Virus record (IMG/VR): IMGVR_UViG_3300045988_134824
Coordinates: 72,744 to 136,743 of that record
Direction: 5' to 3' (one strand)
From: a virus
DNA length: 64,000 bases
In this document: positions 4,211-50,797 of the stretch, piece by piece
Position numbering within the stretch: the first letter of the stretch is position 1
Layout of the letters: every line of letters starts with the position of its first letter
Translations under genes and position numbers: made by a program
The notes under the pieces: generated by a model
Seen by the model: only the letters and a program-made list of their open reading frames with translations
What the model was told of the DNA's origin: nothing
Database searches by the model: none

Positions 4211-4838
4211 GAAAGAAGGTAAACACACAATGAGAACAAAACAGAACAAAACAATCAAGATCCTATTAGCCGTAGCACTCATATTTACGGCTTTTTTAAT
4301 CTTTGGAAATACTGTACACGCAAAGACAAAAAGAAGCACGTACAGAACGATAAACGGTATTTATAACAGTGACGGCACAATAGATACGGCAGATGGTTAT
4401 TGTTGGAAAGTTCGCAAGGAATCGTATGCCTATCCAGGGACTACACTCGCAACTATAAAATTTAACACACACGGCACTAGAAACAAGCTCGATGATTCTA
4501 TTGTAAAGATCACGGCAAAGAACAGAAATATTCAGCTTGTAAACGATTATATACGACATGAGTACGATCTAAATGCCTATAAGGTAAAGTATATCAGCAC
4601 TGGAAAATTAACCGATAGAATGATCCGTGAACGTGCTACACGACATACTATTTACGTGGAAATTATTAAAAGTGTTTCTGCCGGTGGTAGACATGGAACG
4701 TATGGAAAAAACTATTACCTTGCGTATAACAAACGTGTAAGAAAAGGAAAGCACGTGACAAGTTATTGTGTATGGAATCCTTGCAACGCCTATTGTGATG
4801 ATGTAGAAGCCGTGGCAGATAATGAAAAAATCAGATAG
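4167..4838 (+). CDS. secreted Cys-containing protein with N-terminal signal peptide (likely true start ATG ~4230)
   Basis: MRTKQNKTIKILLAVALIFTAFLIFGNTVHA signal-peptide-like N-terminus; RBS gaaagaaggtaaacacacaATG. Confidence 0.5.
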   Translation: MKKIYTNYFRILNIRKEGKHTMRTKQNKTIKILLAVALIFTAFLIFGNTVHAKTKRSTYRTINGIYNSDGTIDTADGYCWKVRKESYAYPGTTLATIKFNTHGTRNKLDDSIVKITAKNRNIQLVNDYIRHEYDLNAYKVKYISTGKLTDRMIRERATRHTIYVEIIKSVSAGGRHGTYGKNYYLAYNKRVRKGKHVTSYCVWNPCNAYCDDVEAVADNEKIR

Positions 4839-5139
4839 AAAGAAGGTTAGAACTATGAGAAAAGAAAATACAATGTACACTGGATTTTATGATATTCCTT
4901 GTCTTACTGGAAGAAAGAGTTTTTACGGTAAAGCAAAAGAAAGAGTTATCGACAATGGTTACGAGCTTAAATCATATGAAACTATTGTCTGTAAGTTAGT
5001 CAATGGAAAACTTATCCGATTGTGGAACGATTACAGCCCAACAACTATGAACCATGTAAACGGCTTCTTAGTGTTCCACGGTATGGAAAAGATCAAGAAA
5101 GCTGATTGGATGGCAATGGAAGTTAAGGAAGGAGCGTAA
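4822..5139 (+). CDS. hypothetical protein (likely start ~4856)
   Basis: ORF; RBS gaaagaaggttagaactATG. Confidence 0.45.
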   Translation: MKKSDRKKVRTMRKENTMYTGFYDIPCLTGRKSFYGKAKERVIDNGYELKSYETIVCKLVNGKLIRLWNDYSPTTMNHVNGFLVFHGMEKIKKADWMAMEVKEGA

Positions 5140-5710: not shown

Positions 5711-6058
5711 GTGGAAATCATGAAAGAAAGAGAATTAAGAACAGCAAAGAAGTTTAACATTTTAGATAAATGTAAATCGTTGGAAAGAGAGCTTCTGCAA
5801 ATTAATAGAGTTGAAGCGATAGAATTTGATCTTAATGGATTTTACAGTGATATATATCAAGTAATTATCTTAGCAAGATATGATATTCCAATAACTTTAG
5901 AAAACTACTTTGAAACACGGAAGGAAGTTGTGAAAAATATCATCAAGGTTGCTGGAAATTATGGATTAACAAGAACAGAAGATCGTATTGAGGACTATGG
6001 AACGACATTTTATTTTGTATTTCGTTGTTCTAAAGAATGGAAAAATAAAGAAAACTAA
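5711..6058 (+). CDS. hypothetical protein (ATG likely at 5720)
   Basis: ORF; stereotyped RBS aaggtggaaatcATG. Confidence 0.45.
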   Translation: MEIMKERELRTAKKFNILDKCKSLERELLQINRVEAIEFDLNGFYSDIYQVIILARYDIPITLENYFETRKEVVKNIIKVAGNYGLTRTEDRIEDYGTTFYFVFRCSKEWKNKEN

Positions 6059-6071
6059 AAGGTAAAGGAAG

Positions 6072-6353
6072 GTGTATAGAATGGAAATTTTAAAGATGAC
6101 AAGAACAAACATGGTAGTGATTCAGACAGTAGAAAAGGAACAACAAAACACTTTTGATATTGGAAAAATCAAAGTCGCAGCCTTGCCACCGATCGCAAAG
6201 AAAGATCTTATCGCAGAACTTAAAAGCAAAGGCTTCTGCGATGGAATGATCCATACGGCTATGCAATGTAGGTTGGAAGATCTGAACGGCTACGTGAACG
6301 TGTGGAAGTATGTAGCGTATATCTTAGCGGTAGAATTGATGGAAAGATTATAA
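6072..6353 (+). CDS. hypothetical protein (93 aa)
   Basis: ORF with RBS. Confidence 0.45.
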   Translation: MYRMEILKMTRTNMVVIQTVEKEQQNTFDIGKIKVAALPPIAKKDLIAELKSKGFCDGMIHTAMQCRLEDLNGYVNVWKYVAYILAVELMERL

Positions 6354-12376: not shown

Positions 12377-13741
12377 GTGGAATTAATTATGAATCTAAAC
12401 GAAATGGAAATCCCTTGCGATCCAATTTTGGATAAAGCAAAGAGGGATGAGTTAGTGCAGAACACAGAACTTTTAAAACAGGTTACAATCAAGCCGATCC
12501 CGTGGCTTCCTGGACGAGATTATATCACTACAGAACAGGTAGCACGATTCTTTGACGGGGATGTTGATGAAGTCAAGAGGTTGTGTACGAAGTATCGTAA
12601 AGAGTTTTTAGCAGATGGAATGGAAGTTAAGACAGTGCAGGAGATCATTGATGGTCAGAACGCAACAGCGGAAAAACAGAAGGGAAGAATCATGGTAACG
12701 TATCCGAACGGATTGAATATCTCATTCGGTTACAAGGGTGCTAAGGTGTTTACTCTTAAATGCTTGATCAGATTGTCTTTACTAATGGAAACTTCAAAAC
12801 TTGCCGAGAGCGTGAGGTATTATGTTTTCATTAATGATTATATCACGATAGAAGAGCAGAGAGAACAAGAGCAGGTAGAGGCAGGTGTGCAGCTTGTAGA
12901 CACAACGGAAATTTTAGGTAGAAGAATTGACTTATACAGAAGCATTGAAGATCCGTTATTCTTGGCAAGAGATGTTGCAGAATGGATTGATTATAGTAAA
13001 CGTCCTGATGGAAGTTATAAAACAGATATGATGTTACAGGTGATTGATTCAGAGGAAAAATATAAGACCAAAATCTTAACCGCCAATAATGTTGGCGGGT
13101 CAAATTTAGGTCAGATTGATTCTACGGGAAAGACTATTAATCCATTTTGGTTTCTGACAGAAGATGGACTCTATGAAGTGTGTATGCAGTCACGCAAGCC
13201 GATTGCAAAACAGATGAAGAAACAGATCAAAGAATACCTTAGAAACATCCGTAAGACAGGCGGTGCAGTTGACTTTGGAAAAGAATCACAGTTTATTGAA
13301 CACTATTTTCCATCATTCTCTGAAGATGTCAAGCTTGCAATGGTAACGGATCTGAGAACACAAAACAAGGAACTCAAAGAAGAAAATCAGAAGCTACAGA
13401 ATGATAATAAGCTATTAGCAGCGGAAATTTTGACGTGGGATGATCGCAATAAGATGAACGCTGGTATTAGGAAATTAGCTGCGGTTACAGGAACACAGTT
13501 CTCTGTTATGTGGAACGAGCTGTATAAGAACTTACAGTATAAATATCAGATTGATGTTAAGAAACGTGGCAAGAAACCATTTCTACAGTGGATTCAAGAA
13601 CATGAATGGGATAAGGTACTGAAAGTCTTTTGTGCAATGTGTGAAGCTAGAAACCTATCTCCAACAGATATGTTCCAACAGACGGCACCTGTGGAAAATT
13701 TATATGATAATGAAGATGAGGATGATGAAGTATGGAATTAG
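12377..13741 (+). CDS. Bro-N domain phage antirepressor-family protein
   Basis: FLARDVAEWIDYS...FLTEDGLYEVCMQSRKPIAKQMKKQI matches Bro-N signature; 454 aa. Confidence 0.55.
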   Translation: MELIMNLNEMEIPCDPILDKAKRDELVQNTELLKQVTIKPIPWLPGRDYITTEQVARFFDGDVDEVKRLCTKYRKEFLADGMEVKTVQEIIDGQNATAEKQKGRIMVTYPNGLNISFGYKGAKVFTLKCLIRLSLLMETSKLAESVRYYVFINDYITIEEQREQEQVEAGVQLVDTTEILGRRIDLYRSIEDPLFLARDVAEWIDYSKRPDGSYKTDMMLQVIDSEEKYKTKILTANNVGGSNLGQIDSTGKTINPFWFLTEDGLYEVCMQSRKPIAKQMKKQIKEYLRNIRKTGGAVDFGKESQFIEHYFPSFSEDVKLAMVTDLRTQNKELKEENQKLQNDNKLLAAEILTWDDRNKMNAGIRKLAAVTGTQFSVMWNELYKNLQYKYQIDVKKRGKKPFLQWIQEHEWDKVLKVFCAMCEARNLSPTDMFQQTAPVENLYDNEDEDDEVWN

Positions 13742-19745: not shown

Positions 19746-20696
19746 ATGGCAGCAACACAGTTTGAAGTTATTGAAACAGTAAATAATAATAACGCAGAAG
19801 AATCTGAAACAAAGATTAAAAGACGCAAGGACGGAAATCCTAAATGGACTCGATCTAATAAACAAAAAGGCGTATCATCTTTGGTTTATCCGATTAAAAA
19901 CAAAGAAAAATTTGCAGCCTTTAATGCATATTTTAGAGATCAGATTGATAAATCGTACACGGAGTACAAACGATATGTAGCTGCCAGAAATAATCTTCTG
20001 GTTGCAGTTGGAAACAATACAGCGTATCGTATTTCTGATATTGTTAGACTCAAATGGGGCGATTTATTAGACGATAAGACTCGTAAGCAGGAAAAGAAAA
20101 CAAAGAAATTCAGAACTGTATACTTTAACGATTTGGTAACTGAAGCAGTGGATATTTTCTTTGAAGCTGTTGCAGGAACTAAATATGATGTCAAGATTGA
20201 TGGCAAAGTGCCAATGGATAATTATGTTTTCGGAACATGTAAATCTGGATCAGGGCACATGACAGAAGCAAATGCTTTGGATTTTGTTAAAAAAGGTGCT
20301 AAAGCAGTTGGAATTGAGGACAATATTGGTACACATACACTACGAAAGAACTTTGTGTATTGGACACTTGTTGATCATAAAGATGATCAGAACGTATTGT
20401 ATACACTTATGAGATTATTGAATCATAGTAGCCCTGCAATGACGTTTTTATATGCTACAATTACAGAAGAGGAAACTCATGTGTTATTTGATGATATTGC
20501 TCAGACGTATAAGGATATTATCAGCGGAGCATTTAACGGATTAAAGGAAAATGTTATTAATGTGAGTTATGATAGAGTTATGGAGATTATCAAGTGTGCT
20601 TATGATACTGGCAAGGATGATGCAGATCAAGATGATAGAGTACATGAGGACAATATGCAGGCACTCAAAGAGCTGCTGGAAGGAGTTATTTTATGA
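19746..20696 (+). CDS. tyrosine site-specific recombinase (phage integrase family)
   Basis: catalytic-residue pattern: AYRISDIVRLKWGDL (Arg box I), HTLRKNFV (H-x-x-R), LNHSSPAMTFLYATI (His/Tyr box II). Confidence 0.6.
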   Translation: MAATQFEVIETVNNNNAEESETKIKRRKDGNPKWTRSNKQKGVSSLVYPIKNKEKFAAFNAYFRDQIDKSYTEYKRYVAARNNLLVAVGNNTAYRISDIVRLKWGDLLDDKTRKQEKKTKKFRTVYFNDLVTEAVDIFFEAVAGTKYDVKIDGKVPMDNYVFGTCKSGSGHMTEANALDFVKKGAKAVGIEDNIGTHTLRKNFVYWTLVDHKDDQNVLYTLMRLLNHSSPAMTFLYATITEEETHVLFDDIAQTYKDIISGAFNGLKENVINVSYDRVMEIIKCAYDTGKDDADQDDRVHEDNMQALKELLEGVIL

Positions 20697-21771: not shown

Positions 21772-21881
21772 TTTTGTTCTATGGTAGCATTATAATAAGA
21801 AATGTAGAGATTCTTTGTTCACAACAAAAATTAACTTTCTTTCTTGCACCTATTGACAGGGTGCAAAAAGTATGGTATATT
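21768..21881 (+). promoter_or_regulatory. two promoters: TTGATT-17-TATAAT (21768-21796) and TTGACA-17-TATATT (21853-21881); the latter sits in inverted repeat TTGCACC-N9-GGTGCAA (21844-21866)
   Basis: hexamers, spacers and palindrome read directly. Confidence 0.5.
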
Positions 21882-21931
21882 TAATTCATGAAAACAAAAA
21901 ATGCAACTGGGGAAAGTTGAGGGACGTAAAA

Positions 21932-22381
21932 ATGAACGGATATACTAACAAAGAAAGAAAAGGAAACGATAACAGAAAAAGAAAAGAATATGTATATGGC
22001 AAATATCAAAATCCTCAAGTTTGGGGAATATATTTTGCAGATTTGCCGAAAATTGAAGGTAGTCATATCTTGCATGGGAAAAGACCAGTCATCGTATATT
22101 CTAATAATATTTGTAATAATACGAGCACAGAGATTAACGTGTATCCAATTACAAAAAAATTAAGGAACTGGATACCGACACATGTGACCATTTATCCAAA
22201 TACCAGTAATGGATTAAAAATGGTATCACAGGTGTATTTAGAGCAAGGAAGAACAATTCCAAAGAATAATCTTTTAGAGTATTGGGGAAGAATATCTGAT
22301 CTATCTTTAATGTTAAAAATAGGACATGGCATTTTAATACAAAACGGCATGTTATCGTACATGAATGCAATGGCATCCTAG
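21932..22381 (+). CDS. MazF/PemK-family endoribonuclease toxin-like protein with basic N-terminal extension (track ORF begins 21872; ATG 21932 has a better RBS)
   Basis: GKRPVIVYSNN...VYPITKK...THVTIYPNTSNGLKMVSQVYLEQGRTIPKNNLLEYWGRIS matches PemK/MazF fold signature. Confidence 0.6.
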   Translation: MNGYTNKERKGNDNRKRKEYVYGKYQNPQVWGIYFADLPKIEGSHILHGKRPVIVYSNNICNNTSTEINVYPITKKLRNWIPTHVTIYPNTSNGLKMVSQVYLEQGRTIPKNNLLEYWGRISDLSLMLKIGHGILIQNGMLSYMNAMAS

Positions 22382-37760: not shown

Positions 37761-39368
37761 ATGGCAGCTAAGGATAACACAATGGTAATTACTAGAAAGA
37801 TTGCTTTGATTCCTGTCGTAAGTGAGCGAAAAGAATGGAAGAAAAGAATTAATGCTTTCTTAGAAAAAGATTTTCCAAGGAAAATTGAAGCAAAGAAGAA
37901 GCAGATTAAGAATACAAGCAAGCCAGAAAATAAAGATGGGTACAAGCTGCAACTCGCAGAATTAGAAAAACAATACGAAGATTTTAAAGAAAATAGAATC
38001 GAAGAATATACTCAGAAAATGGTTAACGATTATACATATGGTCTTGTGAGAGATGCAATGGAGAGTGAAGCAAGACGAAAGAATTACATTTTGTCTTACA
38101 TATACACAAAAATGGTACAGGATGGAGTTGGATATATGCCAACATTGAAAGATAAATATACATGGATTAAAGAAAATATTAATGTCGCATATAGACGAAA
38201 AGGAAGTAATAAAGGGAGTATCTTTGATGACGTTGACATTGATAATCCATTAGGTGGATACGGAACATGCTTCTCTCAGATATTAACAAGTAAGATCAAA
38301 GATTTGGTTAAGCAGGGATTGTTAGACGGCAAAGTGTCAATTCCAAGTTTTAAAATTGACTCGCCATTTACAATTGCAAAAGCATATTTTGATCTATATC
38401 ACGAATACGAAGATATAGCAGAATTAAAGAAACGTATTTATGATTCAGATTGCAAACTGTATTGTGGATTAGGTAACAAAGGTATTCCGACCATTGCAAA
38501 TTTCAAAGTAAATATCGGACACAAAGGAAATAGAGACGAGTTAATTTCTACATTGTTAAGAATATTTACTGGAGAATACGAGATTTGTGGAAGTACAATG
38601 CAGATTTCTAAAACAAAAATTATTTTAAATTTATCAATTAGAATTCCTAAAACACAGCTTGAATTAGACGAGGACACTGTAGTTGGTGTCGATCTTGGGG
38701 TTGCAATTCCAGCGGTATGTTCTTTGAATAATAACAAATATAAGAGAGAGTATATTGGTAGTAGTGACGATTTTATTAGAATGAGAACGAAATTACAGCA
38801 CGAGAAACAGCAGTTACAGAAAGCATTAAAGATGTCAAAAGGTGGACATGGAAGAAAAAGAAAGTTGTTGGCATTAGAAAGATGTAAAAAGAAAGAACAT
38901 AACTTTGTTGAAACATACTGCCACAAAGTAAGCAAGAAAGTAGTTGATTTTGCGGTCAAGAATAAAGCGAAATATATCAATGTAGAAAATCTTTCGGGAT
39001 ATGATTCAAGTAAATTCATTTTAAGAAATTGGAGTTTTTACAAACTTCAGCAATACATAGAATATAAAGCTGCGAAATATGGTATTGAAGTTAGAAAAAT
39101 AAATCCATCATTCACATCTCAGGTATGTAGTTTCTGTGGACATTGGGAAGATGGGCAGAGGAAAGATCAAGCAACATTTGTTTGTGGTAATCCTAATTGT
39201 GAAAGCCATAAATTACATATGGTAAATGCAGACTATAATGCATCAAGAAATATTGCAATGTCAACATTATTTACGAGCGATAAATTCCAATTTTGTAAAA
39301 AGACGATGCAAAATGCGGCGGAGTATTACGGTATCCAACTAGATAATGAAGATCAATTAGCAGCGTAA
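37761..39368 (+). CDS. TnpB-like / Cas12-like (type V) RuvC nuclease, 535 aa
   Basis: RuvC-I VGVDLGVAIPAVCS (D ~38691). RuvC-II KYINVENLSG (E ~38984). Zn finger CSFCGH..CGNPNC. RuvC-III HMVNADYNASRNIA (D ~39231). Immediately followed by CRISPR-like arrays. Confidence 0.85.
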   Translation: MAAKDNTMVITRKIALIPVVSERKEWKKRINAFLEKDFPRKIEAKKKQIKNTSKPENKDGYKLQLAELEKQYEDFKENRIEEYTQKMVNDYTYGLVRDAMESEARRKNYILSYIYTKMVQDGVGYMPTLKDKYTWIKENINVAYRRKGSNKGSIFDDVDIDNPLGGYGTCFSQILTSKIKDLVKQGLLDGKVSIPSFKIDSPFTIAKAYFDLYHEYEDIAELKKRIYDSDCKLYCGLGNKGIPTIANFKVNIGHKGNRDELISTLLRIFTGEYEICGSTMQISKTKIILNLSIRIPKTQLELDEDTVVGVDLGVAIPAVCSLNNNKYKREYIGSSDDFIRMRTKLQHEKQQLQKALKMSKGGHGRKRKLLALERCKKKEHNFVETYCHKVSKKVVDFAVKNKAKYINVENLSGYDSSKFILRNWSFYKLQQYIEYKAAKYGIEVRKINPSFTSQVCSFCGHWEDGQRKDQATFVCGNPNCESHKLHMVNADYNASRNIAMSTLFTSDKFQFCKKTMQNAAEYYGIQLDNEDQLAA

Positions 39369-39530
39369 ATTATATGAAAATATATGGCATGTTTTGGAGG
39401 GAGTTCGATGCTCCCTCAGCCATAAAATAATATGACTATGCCAAGAGAGAGGAAAAAAATTCACTCACTAAAATTTGTGTAATTGAGCAAAACATAAAGT
39501 TTTGTATTACATACATAATTAAGATTTGAG
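39369..39530 (+). ncRNA. conserved unit U1 (leader / tracrRNA- or omega-RNA-like candidate) preceding array A; contains strong hairpin 39384-39424
   Basis: shares ordered blocks tatggcatgttttg(g)ag .. atgaYtatgccaaRag .. actcactaaaa .. atttgag with U2 and U3; ttgtgtaatt is complementary to repeat segment aattacaca. Confidence 0.4.
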
Positions 39531-39632
39531 GTTTGAGAACTATTGAAAATTACACAGATACAAAACATCCAGATAAATATTTTATTGACGTTGTCAGTTT
39601 GAGAACTATTGAAAATTACATAAAATGTATGG
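39531..39632 (+). CRISPR. mini-array A: 36-nt repeat gtttgagaactattgaaaattacacagatacaaaac (39531-39566), 30-nt spacer (39567-39596), distal repeat degenerate after nt 25 (39597-39632)
   Basis: read directly. Confidence 0.7.
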
Positions 39633-39770
39633 CATGTTTTGAGAAATTTTATATCCAATGTAAATTTTCTGATCATAAGAAATATGATTATGCCAAAAGT
39701 GAGATTTAAAAATAATACTCACTAAAACCTATGTGATAAAGTATCAAAATTGGACAAAGATGAAATTGAG
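39633..39770 (+). ncRNA. conserved unit U2 preceding array B
   Basis: contains stem AGTGAGA-tttaaaaataa-TACTCACT; segments acctatgt and gtatcaaa are complementary to the B repeat variant (acataggt, tttgatac). Confidence 0.4.
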
Positions 39771-39938
39771 GTTTGATACCTATTAAAAATTACATAGGTA
39801 CAAAACATGTTTTGATCTTCAGCACCTGATACAAAGTTTGATACCTATTAAAAATTACATAGGTACAAAACACAATCGGCATCCGATCTTTTCGCTGCCT
39901 GAGTTTGATACCTATTAAAAATTACACAAAGTGTGTGG
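39771..39938 (+). CRISPR. mini-array B: repeat gtttgatacctattaaaaattacataggtacaaaac x2 (39771-39806, 39836-39871), spacers 29 nt (39807-39835) and 31 nt (39872-39902), third repeat degenerate after nt 24 (39903-39938)
   Basis: read directly. Confidence 0.7.
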
Positions 39939-40037
39939 TGTGTTCTGGAGATTTTATCTCGTCTATCAAATAGGTAGATACGCCAAAAGTGAGACATGAA
40001 TGTACTCACTAAAATCTATGTTAGTTGAATATTTGAG
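39939..40037 (+). ncRNA. conserved unit U3 preceding array C
   Basis: stem AGTGAGA-catgaatg-TACTCACT has the same stem as U2 with a different loop; ends ..atttgag like U1/U2. Confidence 0.35.
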
Positions 40038-40139
40038 GTTTAAGACCTATCAAATTTAACACAGGTACAGAACTCTGACGTGCTTCATTTTATTCGATCG
40101 TGCGTAAAAGACCTATCAAATTTAACAAAATCAAAAGGA
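40038..40139 (+). CRISPR. mini-array C: repeat gtttaagacctatcaaatttaacacaggtacagaac (40038-40073), 30-nt spacer (40074-40103), degenerate terminal repeat gtaaaagacctatcaaatttaacaaaatc.. (40104-40139)
   Basis: read directly. Confidence 0.6.
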
Positions 40140-40320: not shown

Positions 40321-40625
40321 TGAACAACTTCTTATATATTGAATCACGGGAAGAAGAGAATACATCCCTCGATTCTAAACGTGTTTTATTGAATGAAGAA
40401 AATTACAAACATATTATTTCATCATTAGATCATTATCCACCGACGGCAGACGAAGTTAAGAAAGCAATTTGTATTTTGACTGGACGATTGATCTACAGAA
40501 GCGTTTGGAATATGGAATCTGATATTGATAGTTTAAATATGAGTTTATCACCGCCAAAAGAAATGACGGTTGCAGAAATTGAAAAGGAACTTGGTTATAA
40601 AGTTAAGATTGTAAAGGAGAAATAA
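40320..40625 (+). CDS. hypothetical protein (101 aa)
   Basis: ORF with RBS. Confidence 0.45.
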   Translation: MNNFLYIESREEENTSLDSKRVLLNEENYKHIISSLDHYPPTADEVKKAICILTGRLIYRSVWNMESDIDSLNMSLSPPKEMTVAEIEKELGYKVKIVKEK

Positions 40626-40936
40626 TGCCAATGGCAAAAAAGAAACAAGGAATGTCGTTTGAAATGATGATGCAAAATATGGAAATTAATCCAAGGCAAT
40701 TGTATCGTCGTAGTTCGTGGAAGAAGACACGAACAACTTATGATTATGTGTTTATGATGTGCGAAGAAGAATTAAATGAGATTATTCCATTTGATAAAAA
40801 ATATAAAATGAAACCACTCTTATGTAGAGACCAAAATGGAGTTATAACATTGGGATGGTTGCCTACACAAGAGGATATTTTCGCAAATGATTGGGTTGAG
40901 CAAGGATGGGATTTTAACAGTAAAAGGAAGAGGTGA
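40625..40936 (+). CDS. hypothetical protein (103 aa)
   Basis: ORF. Confidence 0.45.
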   Translation: MPMAKKKQGMSFEMMMQNMEINPRQLYRRSSWKKTRTTYDYVFMMCEEELNEIIPFDKKYKMKPLLCRDQNGVITLGWLPTQEDIFANDWVEQGWDFNSKRKR

Positions 40937-40944
40937 ATAATTAA

Positions 40945-41244
40945 TTGAATTTTATAAAAGCAATGATCGCAATAAAAAAAGACAAAACTACTATAAGAAG
41001 AGGCATTTGGGGAAAGGAAAAGTATTTGAAAATTTATTCGTCAGAATTAACTAATGTTTATTTTGAGTGTAATGATATGGGTGAATATAAGCCAGATTCA
41101 ATTATTTTTTTATTTGATAAAGAAAACGCAGAAGTTTGGATACCTCTTGCGGAAGATGTATATGCAGATGACTGGGAAATATATGTTGAATCGGTTAAAA
41201 AGCCAAATCAATCAAAAGCAAAGGTGAAGGAGAAAGAAGAATGA
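40945..41244 (+). CDS. hypothetical protein (99 aa)
   Basis: ORF. Confidence 0.4.
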   Translation: MNFIKAMIAIKKDKTTIRRGIWGKEKYLKIYSSELTNVYFECNDMGEYKPDSIIFLFDKENAEVWIPLAEDVYADDWEIYVESVKKPNQSKAKVKEKEE

Positions 41245-50257: not shown

Positions 50258-50797
50258 ATGTCGTTGAAATTAAATGACGAACAGAGAAAATTAGTAGAAC
50301 AAAATCATAATTTGATTTACTCTGCTATGACAAAATGCGGTATCCGCAGACAAGATTTTGATGACTATTATGGATTCGCTGCTATTGGGTTGTGTAAGGC
50401 AACAATTGATTATGATGAATCCAAAGCTAAATCATTCTCTACATATGCATATAAATGTATGCAAAAAGAAATTATAGCATATACTCGATGGAGATTTGCA
50501 GATAAAAGAGATGAACGACTTACCTTATCGTACAATCAGTTAATGAATGATTTAGATGAAGACGAAAAAGAATATTCTTTTTTGTTAGCTGATAAAAAAA
50601 ATAATGAAAAAAAATTAATTTTCTTTTTGTGTTTTGATGAGCAAATGCGAATACTAAATAATAAGGACAGGTTAATTATTAATTTAAAGGCAAAAGGGTA
50701 TACGAACGAAGAAATAGGAAATACCCTTGGTGTTACATATCAAGCAATTCAATATCAATTGAAAAAAATTAAAAATAAATTAATCCCATCCTTATAA
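50258..50797 (+). CDS. sigma-70 family sigma factor (second paralog)
   Basis: N-terminus LNDEQRKLVEQNHNLIY parallels 43387 ORF (LNDEQRRLIEDNYSLIW); C-terminal GYTNEEIGNTLGVTYQAIQYQLKKI HTH. Confidence 0.6.
   Translation: MSLKLNDEQRKLVEQNHNLIYSAMTKCGIRRQDFDDYYGFAAIGLCKATIDYDESKAKSFSTYAYKCMQKEIIAYTRWRFADKRDERLTLSYNQLMNDLDEDEKEYSFLLADKKNNEKKLIFFLCFDEQMRILNNKDRLIINLKAKGYTNEEIGNTLGVTYQAIQYQLKKIKNKLIPSL

Follow-up and report, generated by a model that had tools for sequence, protein, structure and literature searches.

The lytic Vibrio phage ICP1 reportedly uses a type I-F CRISPR-Cas system of its own to destroy PLE, a chromosomally integrated element that parasitises phages. This system is said to be a complete multi-subunit one, with adaptation genes and longer arrays. 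PLE is depicted in Figure 1 of PMC11656645, an article that also describes viral mini-arrays; these contain one or two spacers, reside in viral genomes, target other mobile elements, and have repeats identical to those of the host and no effector of their own. Type V systems are found in phages as well. As described in a preprint, the phage type V system Cas12r-CRISPR of the Thermus Lalka phages carries spacers directed mostly against integrative mobile elements of the host; a role in mobile-element conflict has been proposed, and the structure of the crRNA has been determined (bioRxiv 10.64898/2026.04.20.719267). Cas12p ('Cas12 hacker'), a phage-borne miniature Cas12 with twelve members, recognises a GTN PAM and depends on thioredoxin (bioRxiv 10.1101/2025.01.20.633832).

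Here we analyze a window of 64,000 nt from the IMG/VR record IMGVR_UViG_3300045988_134824 (record positions 72,744 to 136,743; all feature coordinates below are those of the window), which most probably carries a phage-borne type V-F system involved in mobile-element conflict, with no adaptation module found in positions 1-50.8 kb of the window. In the proposed system, a single nuclease gene is accompanied by three guide cassettes in tandem, with all parts on the + strand. Every cassette would combine a tracrRNA gene of its own with a short linker and a mini-array, in which one or two spacers are followed by a truncated repeat at the end.

Genomic setting and the predicted Cas12f effector

The genes in the window are phage-like, encoding DnaB, RecJ, DNA polymerase, and anti-repressors. 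The large ORFs all lie on one strand, the GC content is 33%, and the four largest ORFs at 52.2-61.8 kb yield replication-type PHROG matches. Together with the relatives of the Cas12f protein encoded on IMG/VR contigs of 140-215 kb, these genes bear out the placement of the locus inside a phage genome by an earlier, sequence-only reading of this DNA. That reading had seen no cas1/cas2 and no TnpA, in agreement with a Pfam sweep of the non-overlapping + strand ORFs of at least 60 aa in positions 1-50.8 kb of the window, which detected no Cas1, Cas2, or Cas4 and no Y1_Tnp/TnpA domain; among the neighbor genes of the homologues, no Y1_Tnp domain is on record. A megablast search of GenBank phages with positions 36.5-41.5 kb of the window produced no match. 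The phage genome is about 166 kb long, and its anti-defence genes in the window include ArdA, near the window start, and two Tad2-like genes directly after the arrays.

The effector gene is the following:

37761..39368, + strand: cas12f gene, 535 aa, predicted type V-F effector (PDB, Pfam, and NCBIfam searches)

In a phmmer search of PDB, the closest entries are 8hr5_A (E=4.3e-66) and 9nzo_B, Al3Cas12f (E=1.3e-64), with Un1Cas12f (E=1e-28) and ISDra2 TnpB (E=7e-07) more distant; Cas12f structures span E=4e-66 to 1e-24. The entry 8hr5 (497-aa chain 8hr5_A) is one that we take to be Clostridium novyi CnCas12f1, of type V-F1. The Pfam family PF07282 (Cas12f1-like_TNB) matches residues 426-498 with E=3.5e-19. 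The RuvC triad, D311 (VGVDLG), E409 (NVENL), and D491 (NADYNA), aligns with the corresponding motifs in 8hr5 and 9nzo, and both the triad and the four zinc ribbon cysteines (C456, C459, C475, and C480) are unchanged in all 16 homologues compared (52-67% identity). The RuvC/Zn-finger nuclease architecture noticed in the sequence-only reading is thus present as an intact triad and zinc ribbon, and the comparison across families places the protein with Cas12f (E=4e-66) rather than with ISDra2 TnpB (7e-07).

By these matches and motifs, the 535-aa protein is an intact Cas12f-type effector of type V-F, of a size within the Cas12f miniature range (about 400-700 aa). Because it scores 120 bits against the NCBIfam Cas12f2 model NF049972, below the cut-off of 450, it is not a Cas12f2 orthologue; judging from sequence similarity, it belongs with the CnCas12f1/Al3Cas12f (V-F1-like) branch. 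Membership in the Cas12p group was considered and rejected, given that this group has only twelve members and a GTN PAM, and shows no sequence match to the 535-aa protein. In GenBank phages, tblastn with the protein retrieved only matches of less than 60% identity and at most 59% query coverage, annotated as transposases. The homologue records that come from NCBI are metagenome assemblies.

Repeats and mini-arrays

Seven repeat copies, four full (36 nt) and three truncated (24 nt, terminal), form three mini-arrays that span positions 39531-40127, at distances of 163-760 nt downstream of cas12f:

39531..39620, + strand: mini-array 1 (repeat 39531-39566, spacer 1, truncated repeat 39597-39620)
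39567-39596, + strand: spacer 1, 30 nt
39771..39926, + strand: mini-array 2 (repeat 39771-39806, spacer 2, repeat 39836-39871, spacer 3, truncated repeat 39903-39926)
39807-39835, + strand: spacer 2, 29 nt
39872-39902, + strand: spacer 3, 31 nt
40038..40127, + strand: mini-array 3 (repeat 40038-40073, spacer 4, truncated repeat 40104-40127)
40074-40103, + strand: spacer 4, 30 nt
39487..39505, + strand: small hairpin GCAAAAC-ATAAA-GTTTTGT, between tracrRNA 1 and array 1

The coordinates of the three arrays, with their 36-nt repeats and 29-31-nt spacers, are exactly those given in the sequence-only reading, and the degenerate distal repeat reported there is real, in the form of a clean truncation: the first 24 nt are kept, and the remaining 12 nt, which would base-pair with the tracrRNA, are gone. 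Neither of the two objections foreseen in that reading holds: in the part of the window covered by the Pfam sweep, the protein lies in no IS200/IS605 setting, nor do the repeats form a family that is general among phages. A search of both strands of the 64-kb window with a degenerate pattern, allowing up to 3 mismatches, revealed no further repeat copies. Two ORFs that overlap the cassettes, 39461-39676 (-) and 39533-39709 (+), were rejected as genes; they consist of repeat, spacer, and tracrRNA sequence. The hairpin at 39487-39505 is replaced by CAGAAC...GTTCTG in sister phages L001 and L003, a compensatory change; it may serve in processing or as a partial terminator.

A predicted tracrRNA gene for each mini-array

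Each mini-array is preceded by its own predicted tracrRNA gene of about 90-108 nt, and putative -10 boxes were located upstream of the first two of these genes:

39376..39381, + strand: putative -10 box GAAAAT, cassette 1 (conservation; presumed function)
39385..39484, + strand: predicted tracrRNA gene 1 (likeness to Al3Cas12f sgRNA, covariation, fold z=-6.6)
39385-39390 with 39438-39443, + strand: stem S1 of tracrRNA 1
39391-39396, + strand: pseudoknot element GTTTTG of tracrRNA 1
39473-39484, + strand: anti-repeat ATTTGTGTAATT of tracrRNA 1
39621-39626, + strand: putative -10 box TAAAAT, cassette 2 (conservation; presumed function)
39630..39737, + strand: predicted tracrRNA gene 2 (homology, covariation, fold)
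39636-39641, + strand: pseudoknot element GTTTTG of tracrRNA 2
39727-39737, + strand: anti-repeat ACCTATGTGAT of tracrRNA 2
39936..40024, + strand: predicted tracrRNA gene 3 (homology, covariation, fold)
39942-39947, + strand: pseudoknot element GTTCTG of tracrRNA 3
40014-40024, + strand: anti-repeat ATCTATGTTAG of tracrRNA 3

Besides the listed elements, tracrRNA 1 contains two internal hairpins and hairpin S3. The modules end at the 3′ side in ...CACUCACUAAAA followed by the anti-repeat. The validated sgRNA of Al3Cas12f has an ending of the same kind, ...ACACUCAAAAAAUUCACUUGA paired with UCAAGUGAAUAUCCAAC, and contains an internal GUUGGA that is complementary to the crRNA end UCCAAC. Constructs of the sgRNA type built from the phage modules fold with z=-6.6 and -7.5. 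At the gathering threshold, Rfam yields only a tRNA-like match elsewhere in the window, and the tracrRNA modules have no family.

Covariation was evaluated for 30 proposed base pairs across 36 cassettes. In 94.2% of the cells, the bases are paired, and 14 of the 30 pairs are compensatory, that is, changed on both sides, including 8 of the 12 in the anti-repeat:repeat duplex and 2 of the 6 in the pseudoknot. The observed pairing and covariation values were matched in 0 of 500 shuffles, a statistic inflated by the kinship of the cassettes; the slid controls, which pair at 29-51%, and the independent compensatory pairs argue against an artefact. In the pseudoknot, U-A changes to C-G exactly where the repeat of the cassette ends in CAGAAC or CGGAAC, as in cassette 3, where GTTCTG in the tracrRNA compensates for the CAGAAC end of the repeat. 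In all four loci tested, the cognate combination of tracrRNA and repeat forms the most Watson-Crick pairs; the non-cognate combinations lose only 1-5 pairs, so that the cassettes may not be functionally separate.

Most of the 43 cassettes with an aligned upstream flank (of 47 collected) carry a TAAAAT-like box, which precedes stem S1 by 4-10 nt. A promoter scan returned TTGAGA-16-TAAAAT at 39599-39626, with the number of sites not above chance (3 vs 5.2 in shuffles). Conservation of the TAAAAT box is the one ground on which promoters are proposed here. The existence of a separate, co-evolving tracrRNA gene for each array had escaped the sequence-only reading.

Spacer turnover, target elements, and probable hosts

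In three sister phages with 97% identical Cas12f, the repeats and tracrRNA modules are retained and the spacers are different. Spacer 1 matches six IMG/VR contigs of about 18 kb over 30 of its 30 nt and three more over 29, each time with the 5′ flank TTTT, and spacer 3 matches the plasmid-like contigs L102 and L103 (30/31; 5′ flank TTCG). For spacers 2 and 4, no target was found in GenBank phages, IMG/VR, or PLSDB. Ten concatenated spacers had no match in GenBank phages and PLSDB; exact 24-mers of spacers 2, 3, and 4 were recovered from IMG/VR only in the arrays of a sister phage, and a spacer of the L031 lineage only in array-bearing contigs. In seven further phage lineages, the spacers of array 1 match the same element family as spacer 1, at different sites. 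Altogether, eight distinct spacers match this integrative element, all of them located in cassette 1, and eight, including spacer 3, match the plasmid-like element, all located in cassettes 2 or 3.

The protospacers share a 5′ flank with T at position -4 (14 of 15) and a pyrimidine at -3 (13 of 15), and no constraint at -2 and -1. In a distant lineage, two sites on viral contigs of 42-49 kb show the same pattern (TTCA/TCCA). The 5′ side and the composition agree with a type V-F PAM, which is T- or C-rich. Known Cas12f PAMs include TTTR, NTTR, and CCN; compared to these, a constraint at -4/-3 is unusual, on a basis of only 15-17 sites. Several of the spacer-target matches contain 2-4 mismatches and may not be cleavable.

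The first target family, about 18.5 kb in size, encodes an integrase, portal, TerL, major capsid protein, scaffold, helicase, and an XRE-type regulator/repressor; no tape-measure or tail module was found among its ORFs, many of which are unannotated. Because capsid and packaging genes are present and no tail is recognizable, this family appears to be satellite-like, resembling the capsid-forming phage satellites (cf-PICI-like). One of its ORFs has a weak 'tail protein' match (E=1e-05). A copy of the element is integrated in Anaerostipes sp. MSJ-23; from this one insertion in a single isolate, human-gut Lachnospiraceae are the probable hosts. The second family (L102/L103) encodes Rep, ParA, an Arc-like protein, a resolvase, an HNH endonuclease, and a radical-SAM protein, and has no relative in PLSDB.

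The suggestion of the sequence-only reading that the arrays are true CRISPR arrays is thus upheld by spacers that turn over and match mobile elements beside a conserved flank. Its conjecture that the spacers target host defences or competing mobile elements holds in the second part (satellite-like and plasmid-like elements), whereas host defences were not hit; of the four spacers that it proposed to search, 1 and 3 found matches, and 2 and 4 did not.

Could a genuine Cas12f be aimed mainly at competing phages or host defence genes, with the small-element matches as a database side effect? Such a possibility is suggested by a spacer of the distant lineage that matches the 42-49-kb viral contigs, probably ordinary phages, over 30/30 nt, by the two window spacers without an identified target, and by published phage mini-arrays, which mostly target related viruses (PMC11656645). 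However, all 16 distinct spacers with identifiable targets in the clade of the window match one or the other of the two small elements, and none matches a large phage or a chromosomal gene; nor do the spacers match the window outside the arrays. We consider this explanation unlikely.

Far less probable still is a nuclease repurposed as an RNA-guided repressor or regulator, which would silence without cutting, in the manner of TldR or Cas12m. Regulators exapted from TnpB and Cas12 do exist (bioRxiv 10.1101/2023.11.30.569447), Cas12m is described in PMC11656645, and tiny arrays are typical of regulatory guides, but D311/E409/D491 are invariant across the family and coincide in the alignments with catalytic motifs in CnCas12f1 and Al3Cas12f, and the protospacers fall within coding sequence of the target elements rather than at promoters.

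Hardly credible is the reading of the ORF as an IS200/IS605-type TnpB within a transposon, with an omega/reRNA downstream and 'arrays' that are incidental transposon-end repeats: although the ORF matches Pfam OrfB_IS605 (E=1.2e-07) and passes the NCBIfam guided_TnpB cut-off (161 bits vs 100), some homologues are named 'IS605 OrfB family transposase' by their sources, and phages do carry TnpB-bearing insertions, neither IS200_TnpB (59.8 vs a cut-off of 425) nor IS607_TnpB (30.8 vs 350) is passed, Cas12f structures are about 60 orders of magnitude ahead of ISDra2 TnpB, the Pfam sweep of positions 1-50.8 kb shows no Y1 transposase, and, in place of a single reRNA guide fixed by the transposon end, there are three repeat-spacer arrays with exchangeable spacers, which vary among near-identical phages and match other elements beside a conserved flank, in a module-and-array architecture that recurs next to the gene in most of the viral loci examined.

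Proposed mechanism

As a phage-borne type V-F system in mobile-element conflict, the locus would function as follows. Cas12f and the cassettes would be expressed by the phage early in infection. Each tracrRNA would bind the 3′ portion of its cognate repeat, through an anti-repeat duplex of 11-12 bp and through a pseudoknot of 6 bp between a tracrRNA element and the six bases that end the repeat. Duplex and pseudoknot together would make up the guide scaffold of Cas12f, and the spacer would follow at its 3′ end. The nuclease, probably a dimer by analogy with solved Cas12f complexes, would cut matching protospacer DNA that adjoins a 5′ T-Y-N-N flank. The targets would be other mobile elements in the same host, with cassette 1 directed against the integrative element of about 18.5 kb, and cassettes 2 and 3 against the Rep/ParA plasmid-like element.

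More tentatively, and with doubts outweighing our confidence, the cassettes could be viewed as natural single-guide RNA genes, an intermediate between TnpB and CRISPR, that serve as target-dedicated, exchangeable modules renewed by recombination. One TAAAAT-box promoter would then drive a transcript comprising the tracrRNA scaffold, linker, repeat, and spacer, and the anti-repeat of this transcript would fold back in cis onto the repeat. The truncated distal copy would serve both as the 3′ boundary and as the -35 element of the next cassette. Each module would be dedicated to one parasite family, the satellite in the case of cassette 1 and the plasmid in that of cassettes 2 and 3, and the modules would be renewed via phage-phage recombination, not by Cas1-Cas2. 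If so, these cassettes would still show today a stage halfway between the omega RNA of TnpB, made in one piece, and the separate tracrRNA and crRNA of CRISPR.

A large family of viral Cas12f loci

Relatives of the phage protein are encoded in at least 191 IMG/VR loci, and at E<=1e-20 the family comprises over 1,300 proteins. Of 80 loci examined, about 70 contain between one and five mini-arrays, almost always with a separate module upstream of each array. The tracrRNA and mini-array cassette is the normal layout of a large viral Cas12f family and not a one-off. A search of the Cas12f literature found no arrangement in which the tracrRNA of each cassette co-evolves with its own repeat, and gut-phage Cas12f loci built of repeated cassettes appear to be a large family so far undescribed.

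For applications, dozens of tracrRNA/repeat pairs that co-vary in nature are available in this family for one compact nuclease, as useful material for the design of multiplexed or partly orthogonal Cas12f guides. After ICP1 and PLE, the locus would be the second natural case of a phage that apparently directs CRISPR against an element parasitising phages, and the phage, the Anaerostipes isolate that carries the element, and the plasmid form a candidate trio. The strict partition of targets by cassette and the replacement of spacers with no visible adaptation genes raise the question of how viruses update their guides.

Comparison with known systems

The effector shares fold and motifs with Al3Cas12f/Cas12f-MG119, with 37% identity to Al3Cas12f over residues 172-429; the N-terminal ~170 residues of the phage protein are not alignable with it by BLASTP. 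The 3′ end of the tracrRNA is of the same type in Al3Cas12f (CACUCA...AAAA plus anti-repeat), and the pairing between the tracrRNA element and the last six bases of the repeat, supported by covariation in the phages, is possible by sequence in Al3Cas12f. The flank conserved in the phage targets would be a PAM on the same side (5′, pyrimidine-rich) as in the Al3Cas12f and 8hr5 systems, but it lies at -4/-3 and does not directly adjoin the protospacer. These systems come from bacterial contigs, with a single tracrRNA described, whereas the phage locus contains three tracrRNA and mini-array cassettes, with only 1-2 spacers per array and a truncated terminal repeat.

Like Cas12p, the phage protein is phage-borne, within 500-700 aa, tracrRNA-dependent by prediction, and encoded near phage genes; Cas12p is a separate family, absent among the PDB sequence matches of the 535-aa protein. 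Cas12r belongs to another Cas12 family, host phylum, and environment, and the abstract of its report does not mention several tracrRNA cassettes; that system has experimental support, whereas the phage Cas12f locus is known from sequence analysis alone. The likeness to ICP1 lies in a phage-owned CRISPR system that would be turned against an integrated phage-parasitising element, the satellite status of which is presumed here; in contrast to ICP1, the locus employs a single miniature type V effector, no adaptation genes were found in positions 1-50.8 kb of the window, and the arrays, of 1-2 spacers apiece, have a predicted tracrRNA each. Finally, unlike the viral mini-arrays that borrow host Cas proteins, here the phage itself supplies the effector and the tracrRNAs.

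Cas12f effector

The 535-aa ORF recognized in the sequence-only reading is present at 37761-39368 on the + strand, as was claimed there, and contains two domains detected by Pfam, Cas12f1-like TNB (E=3.5e-19) and OrfB_IS605. That reading left the protein between TnpB and Cas12; comparison with models and structures of both groups placed it with Cas12f. Among all PDB sequences, the top match is 8hr5_A (497-aa chain, E=4.3e-66), which we take to be CnCas12f1. Next to it, 9nzo and 9nzr, both deposited as Cas12f effector/nuclease, match at 1.3e-64, and 11 more Cas12f chains, including Un1Cas12f/Cas14a (7l48, 7c7l), score between 1.5e-51 and 6e-24, whereas ISDra2 TnpB reaches merely 7e-07. Of the NCBIfam models, the broad 'guided_TnpB' scores above its cut-off, and the protein is far under each of the specific cut-offs for IS200_TnpB, IS607_TnpB and Cas12f2. 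All 16 homologues compared (52-67% identity) retain the catalytic D311, E409 and D491 and the full set of four zinc-binding Cys. The aligned 9nzo/9nzr chain agrees with the Al3Cas12f sequence in the PMC13186708 supplement, and Al3Cas12f is 37% identical to the window protein across residues 172-429. Given the PDB and NCBIfam scores and the invariant catalytic and zinc residues, the protein is a Cas12f, apparently active, of the CnCas12f1/Al3Cas12f branch.

Cassettes of tracrRNA gene and mini-array

Three mini-arrays lie downstream of the gene, with repeat positions exactly as previously reported. Seven repeat copies, all on the + strand, bound four spacers of 29-31 nt, and a degenerate pattern with up to 3 mismatches detected no further copies in the 64-kb window. 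The distal repeat formerly described as degenerate does occur in each array, but it is a truncation, with the 5' 24 nt kept and the 3' 12 nt gone. The arrays themselves were correctly identified from the sequence, but the predicted tracrRNA gene that accompanies each of them was missed. The stretches from the stop codon to array 1, from array 1 to array 2, and from array 2 to array 3 are mutually homologous.

Features of the Cas12f locus (window coordinates)
37761-39368, + strand, cas12f gene
39385-39484, + strand, tracrRNA gene of cassette 1
39531-39566, + strand, full 36-nt repeat, array 1
39597-39620, + strand, 24-nt terminal repeat copy, array 1
39630-39737, + strand, tracrRNA gene of cassette 2
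39771-39806, + strand, full 36-nt repeat, array 2
39836-39871, + strand, full 36-nt repeat, array 2
39903-39926, + strand, 24-nt terminal repeat copy, array 2
39936-40024, + strand, tracrRNA gene of cassette 3
40038-40073, + strand, full 36-nt repeat, array 3
40104-40127, + strand, 24-nt terminal repeat copy, array 3

Each of the three modules consists, in this order, of a TAAAAT-like box; stem S1 (TGGCAT...ATGCCA), within which lie the element GTTTTG and a pair of variable hairpins; the hairpin GTGAG/CTCAC followed by AAAA; and 11-12 nt whose complement is in the 3' half of the repeat downstream. The 3' part of the Al3Cas12f guide, which has been validated experimentally, is organized likewise (PMC13186708 supplement): ...ACACUCAAAAAAUUCACUUGA is paired with the crRNA UCAAGUGAAUAUCCAAC, and the crRNA end UCCAAC has its complement in an internal GUUGGA. 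No Rfam family corresponds to the tracrRNA-like modules.

From related viral loci, 47 distinct cassettes were gathered, 36 were aligned, and 30 pairs in a structure that we specified were counted. Across these 36 cassettes and 30 pairs, 94.2% of the cells are paired and 14 of the 30 pairs show changes on both sides; none of 500 shuffles reached the observed pairing values, and sliding the partners by 1-3 columns left pairing at only 29-51%. Compensatory pairs make up 8 of the 12 in the anti-repeat:repeat duplex. In the 6-bp pseudoknot, the tracrRNA has GTTCTG in just those cassettes whose repeat ends in CAGAAC or CGGAAC, and GTTTTG in those with the end CAAAAC. In the four loci tested, Watson-Crick pairs were always most numerous for the cognate tracrRNA:repeat combination, with non-cognate combinations losing just 1-5. 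A candidate sgRNA layout for the window Cas12f is tracrRNA (39385-39484) - GAAA - AATTACACAGATACAAAAC - spacer, and sgRNA-like constructs adopt the expected fold (z=-6.6 and -7.5).

The TAAAAT-like box is located 4-10 nt 5' of S1 in most of the 43 cassettes with an alignable upstream flank. A promoter scan of the window, in which sites overall were not enriched compared with shuffles, identified a putative TTGAGA -35 element within the truncated repeat of array 1, 16 nt 5' of the TAAAAT box of cassette 2.

Repeats and tracrRNA modules are common to the window and three sister phages, among which the array 1 spacer differs in 4 of 4 and arrays 2 and 3 occur in two versions. In the wider clade, spacers are nearly all unique and arrays keep to 1-3 spacers. 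Judged by these differences between phages, the arrays act like CRISPR arrays.

Targets of the spacers

The earlier suggestion that the spacers may be aimed at host defences or competing mobile elements holds, in its second part, for spacers 1 and 3; for spacers 2 and 4, no targets were found in the collections searched. Spacer 1 (39567-39596) matches six IMG/VR contigs of 12-19 kb at 30/30 positions and three others at 29/30, and the same family is matched, at other positions, by array-1 spacers of seven other lineages (Cas12f 62-97% identical). These elements encode an integrase, an XRE-type regulator, scaffold protein, major capsid protein, portal, TerL and a helicase, with no tape-measure or tail module detected; a copy in Anaerostipes sp. 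MSJ-23 (TerL 98% identical) occupies ~18.5 kb of a 403-kb contig. With this gene set, the family resembles a capsid-forming phage satellite, and, given the integrated copy, the phage host is probably Anaerostipes or a relative.

Spacer 3 (39872-39902) matches, at 30/31 positions, two gut-metagenome contigs of 13-16 kb (OLQG01001700.1 and OGPR01001839.1). Their genes, encoding Rep, ParA, an Arc-like protein, a resolvase, an HNH endonuclease and a radical-SAM protein, identify the element as plasmid-like; no relative was found in PLSDB. Seven more spacers match this second family, every one from cassette 2 or 3 of other lineages. Thus, all 8 distinct spacers against the satellite-like family reside in cassette 1, and all 8 against the plasmid-like family in cassettes 2 or 3 (2x2 Fisher, about 1.6e-4 by our calculation), a partition that we treat as descriptive because cassettes are inherited and the cases are not independent.

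One spacer is present in two related loci, L002 and L003, as versions with three differing positions. In a third locus, L026, two cassettes (about 4544-4635 and 4787-4879) carry related, non-identical spacers, ACATGGTACCAAGTCAGAATGCAAGTCTGC and AACAGGTGCTATGTCGCTATGCAAGTCTGCA; AACAGGTGCTATGTCGCTATGCAAGTCTGCA has a match in the plasmid-like element (four mismatches), and ACATGGTACCAAGTCAGAATGCAAGTCTGC appears to be a variant directed at that site, as though the two served against escape variants. The L002/L003 versions and the L026 pair suggest tracking of target variants.

In the 5' flanks of 15 distinct protospacers, T occupies position -4 in 14 (binomial probability near 5e-7 at ~30% background T, our calculation) and C or T position -3 in 13, with -2 and -1 free. 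A spacer of a distant lineage (Cas12f about 50% identical) matches viral contigs at 30/30 positions in two cases (42 and 49 kb) and at 26/30 in a third, and the flanks at these matches are TTCA and TCCA. A 5' location of the conserved flank is consistent with a type V effector and with transcription from the + strand; its offset of two bases from the protospacer is unusual.

Phage and targets also share sequence outside the spacers. Within a Bro-N/Ant-like ORF (12377-13741), window positions 13069-13114 are identical over 46/46 nt to 5962-6007 of L007, a contig of the satellite-like family, where the stretch forms one of roughly nine palindromic hairpin units of ~31 nt, repeated in tandem between genes (about 5830-6100) and possibly serving as an origin or as an array for protein binding. 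Within a sigma-70-like gene (50258-50797), positions 50608-50670 are identical over 62/63 nt to 6471-6533 of L102, a contig of the plasmid-like element, in a 1.4-kb intergenic region; this stretch could be part of a 42-aa ORF copying a sigma-factor segment, and may represent a decoy or a recombination scar. Together, the two stretches suggest DNA exchange between the phage and both elements.

Genomic setting and the wider family

The window belongs to a phage with all large ORFs on one strand, GC of 33%, and genes for DnaB, RecJ, DNA polymerase and anti-repressors. A Pfam sweep of a non-overlapping set of + strand ORFs (60 aa or longer, 1-50.8 kb) identified ArdA, Bro-N/ANT, a PemK toxin, a tyrosine recombinase, an SPFH protein, a sigma-70-like protein and two Tad2-like domains. 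In the same sweep, no Cas1, Cas2, Cas4 or Y1 transposase was detected, in line with the lack of cas1/cas2 and TnpA noted before. With ArdA and the Tad2-like domains, the window thus has several counter-defence genes, two of which adjoin the CRISPR locus.

Counter-defence genes (window coordinates)
1779-2327, ArdA anti-restriction gene near the window start
40625-40936, Tad2-like (anti-Thoeris) domain directly 3' of the arrays
40945-41244, Tad2-like (anti-Thoeris) domain directly 3' of the arrays

The recombinase, of the phage integrase family, and the PemK/MazF-like toxin (19746-20696 and 21872-22381, respectively) occur in an otherwise lytic-looking large phage. An Rfam tRNA match at 33626-33764 (43.8 bits) spans 139 nt and could represent a tRNA-like sequence with an interruption or an intron; ARAGORN, run on the window, predicted no tRNA.

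Near-identical loci (97% protein identity) are found on 166-kb IMG/VR contigs, with ~166-kb genomes in the records IMGVR_UViG_3300045988_117852 and _128818, and no close relative was found among GenBank phages. A protein search at E<=1e-20 retrieved 1,312 relatives of the Cas12f, many of them carried by contigs 140-230 kb long; relatives are encoded at 191 IMG/VR loci. About 70 of 80 fetched loci have, on one or both sides of the gene, between one and five mini-arrays whose period is 66 nt, and a tracrRNA-like module stands immediately 5' of nearly every array; thus, the cassette is the building block of this viral Cas12f family.

In three distant loci, long tandem arrays with a 54-nt period, unrelated to the CRISPR period, are located ~0.9-1 kb 3' of cas12f (L074 4731-5109, L075 4625-4922, L076 4676-4907). 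Other members have a HipA_C kinase-like or GmrSD_N gene next to cas12f (L097 5045-6253; L100 181-1815), so that conflict-related genes are often near cas12f.

Proposed mechanism and comparison with known systems

The locus is located between anti-defence genes and the replication module. In the proposed mechanism, the phage would produce Cas12f and the cassette RNAs early, with tracrRNA and crRNA made either as separate transcripts or as one precursor; tracrRNAs would anneal to their own repeats, and the Cas12f-guide complex would then attack and cut two resident elements, the satellite-like one and the plasmid. ICP1 against PLE is the textbook example of a satellite targeted by a phage. Viral mini-arrays and phage CRISPR systems without adaptation genes are established (PMC11656645), and, in the literature searched, we found neither Cas12f loci in which each mini-array has its own tracrRNA nor the present gut-phage family described; therefore, the layout is probably new and the kind of system known. 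The Cas12p 'hacker' is also a phage-borne miniature Cas12, with a GTN PAM (bioRxiv 10.1101/2025.01.20.633832). The nearest functional analogue in the literature searched is Cas12r of the Thermus Lalka phages, the spacers of which, according to that report, are aimed at integrative elements (bioRxiv 10.64898/2026.04.20.719267).
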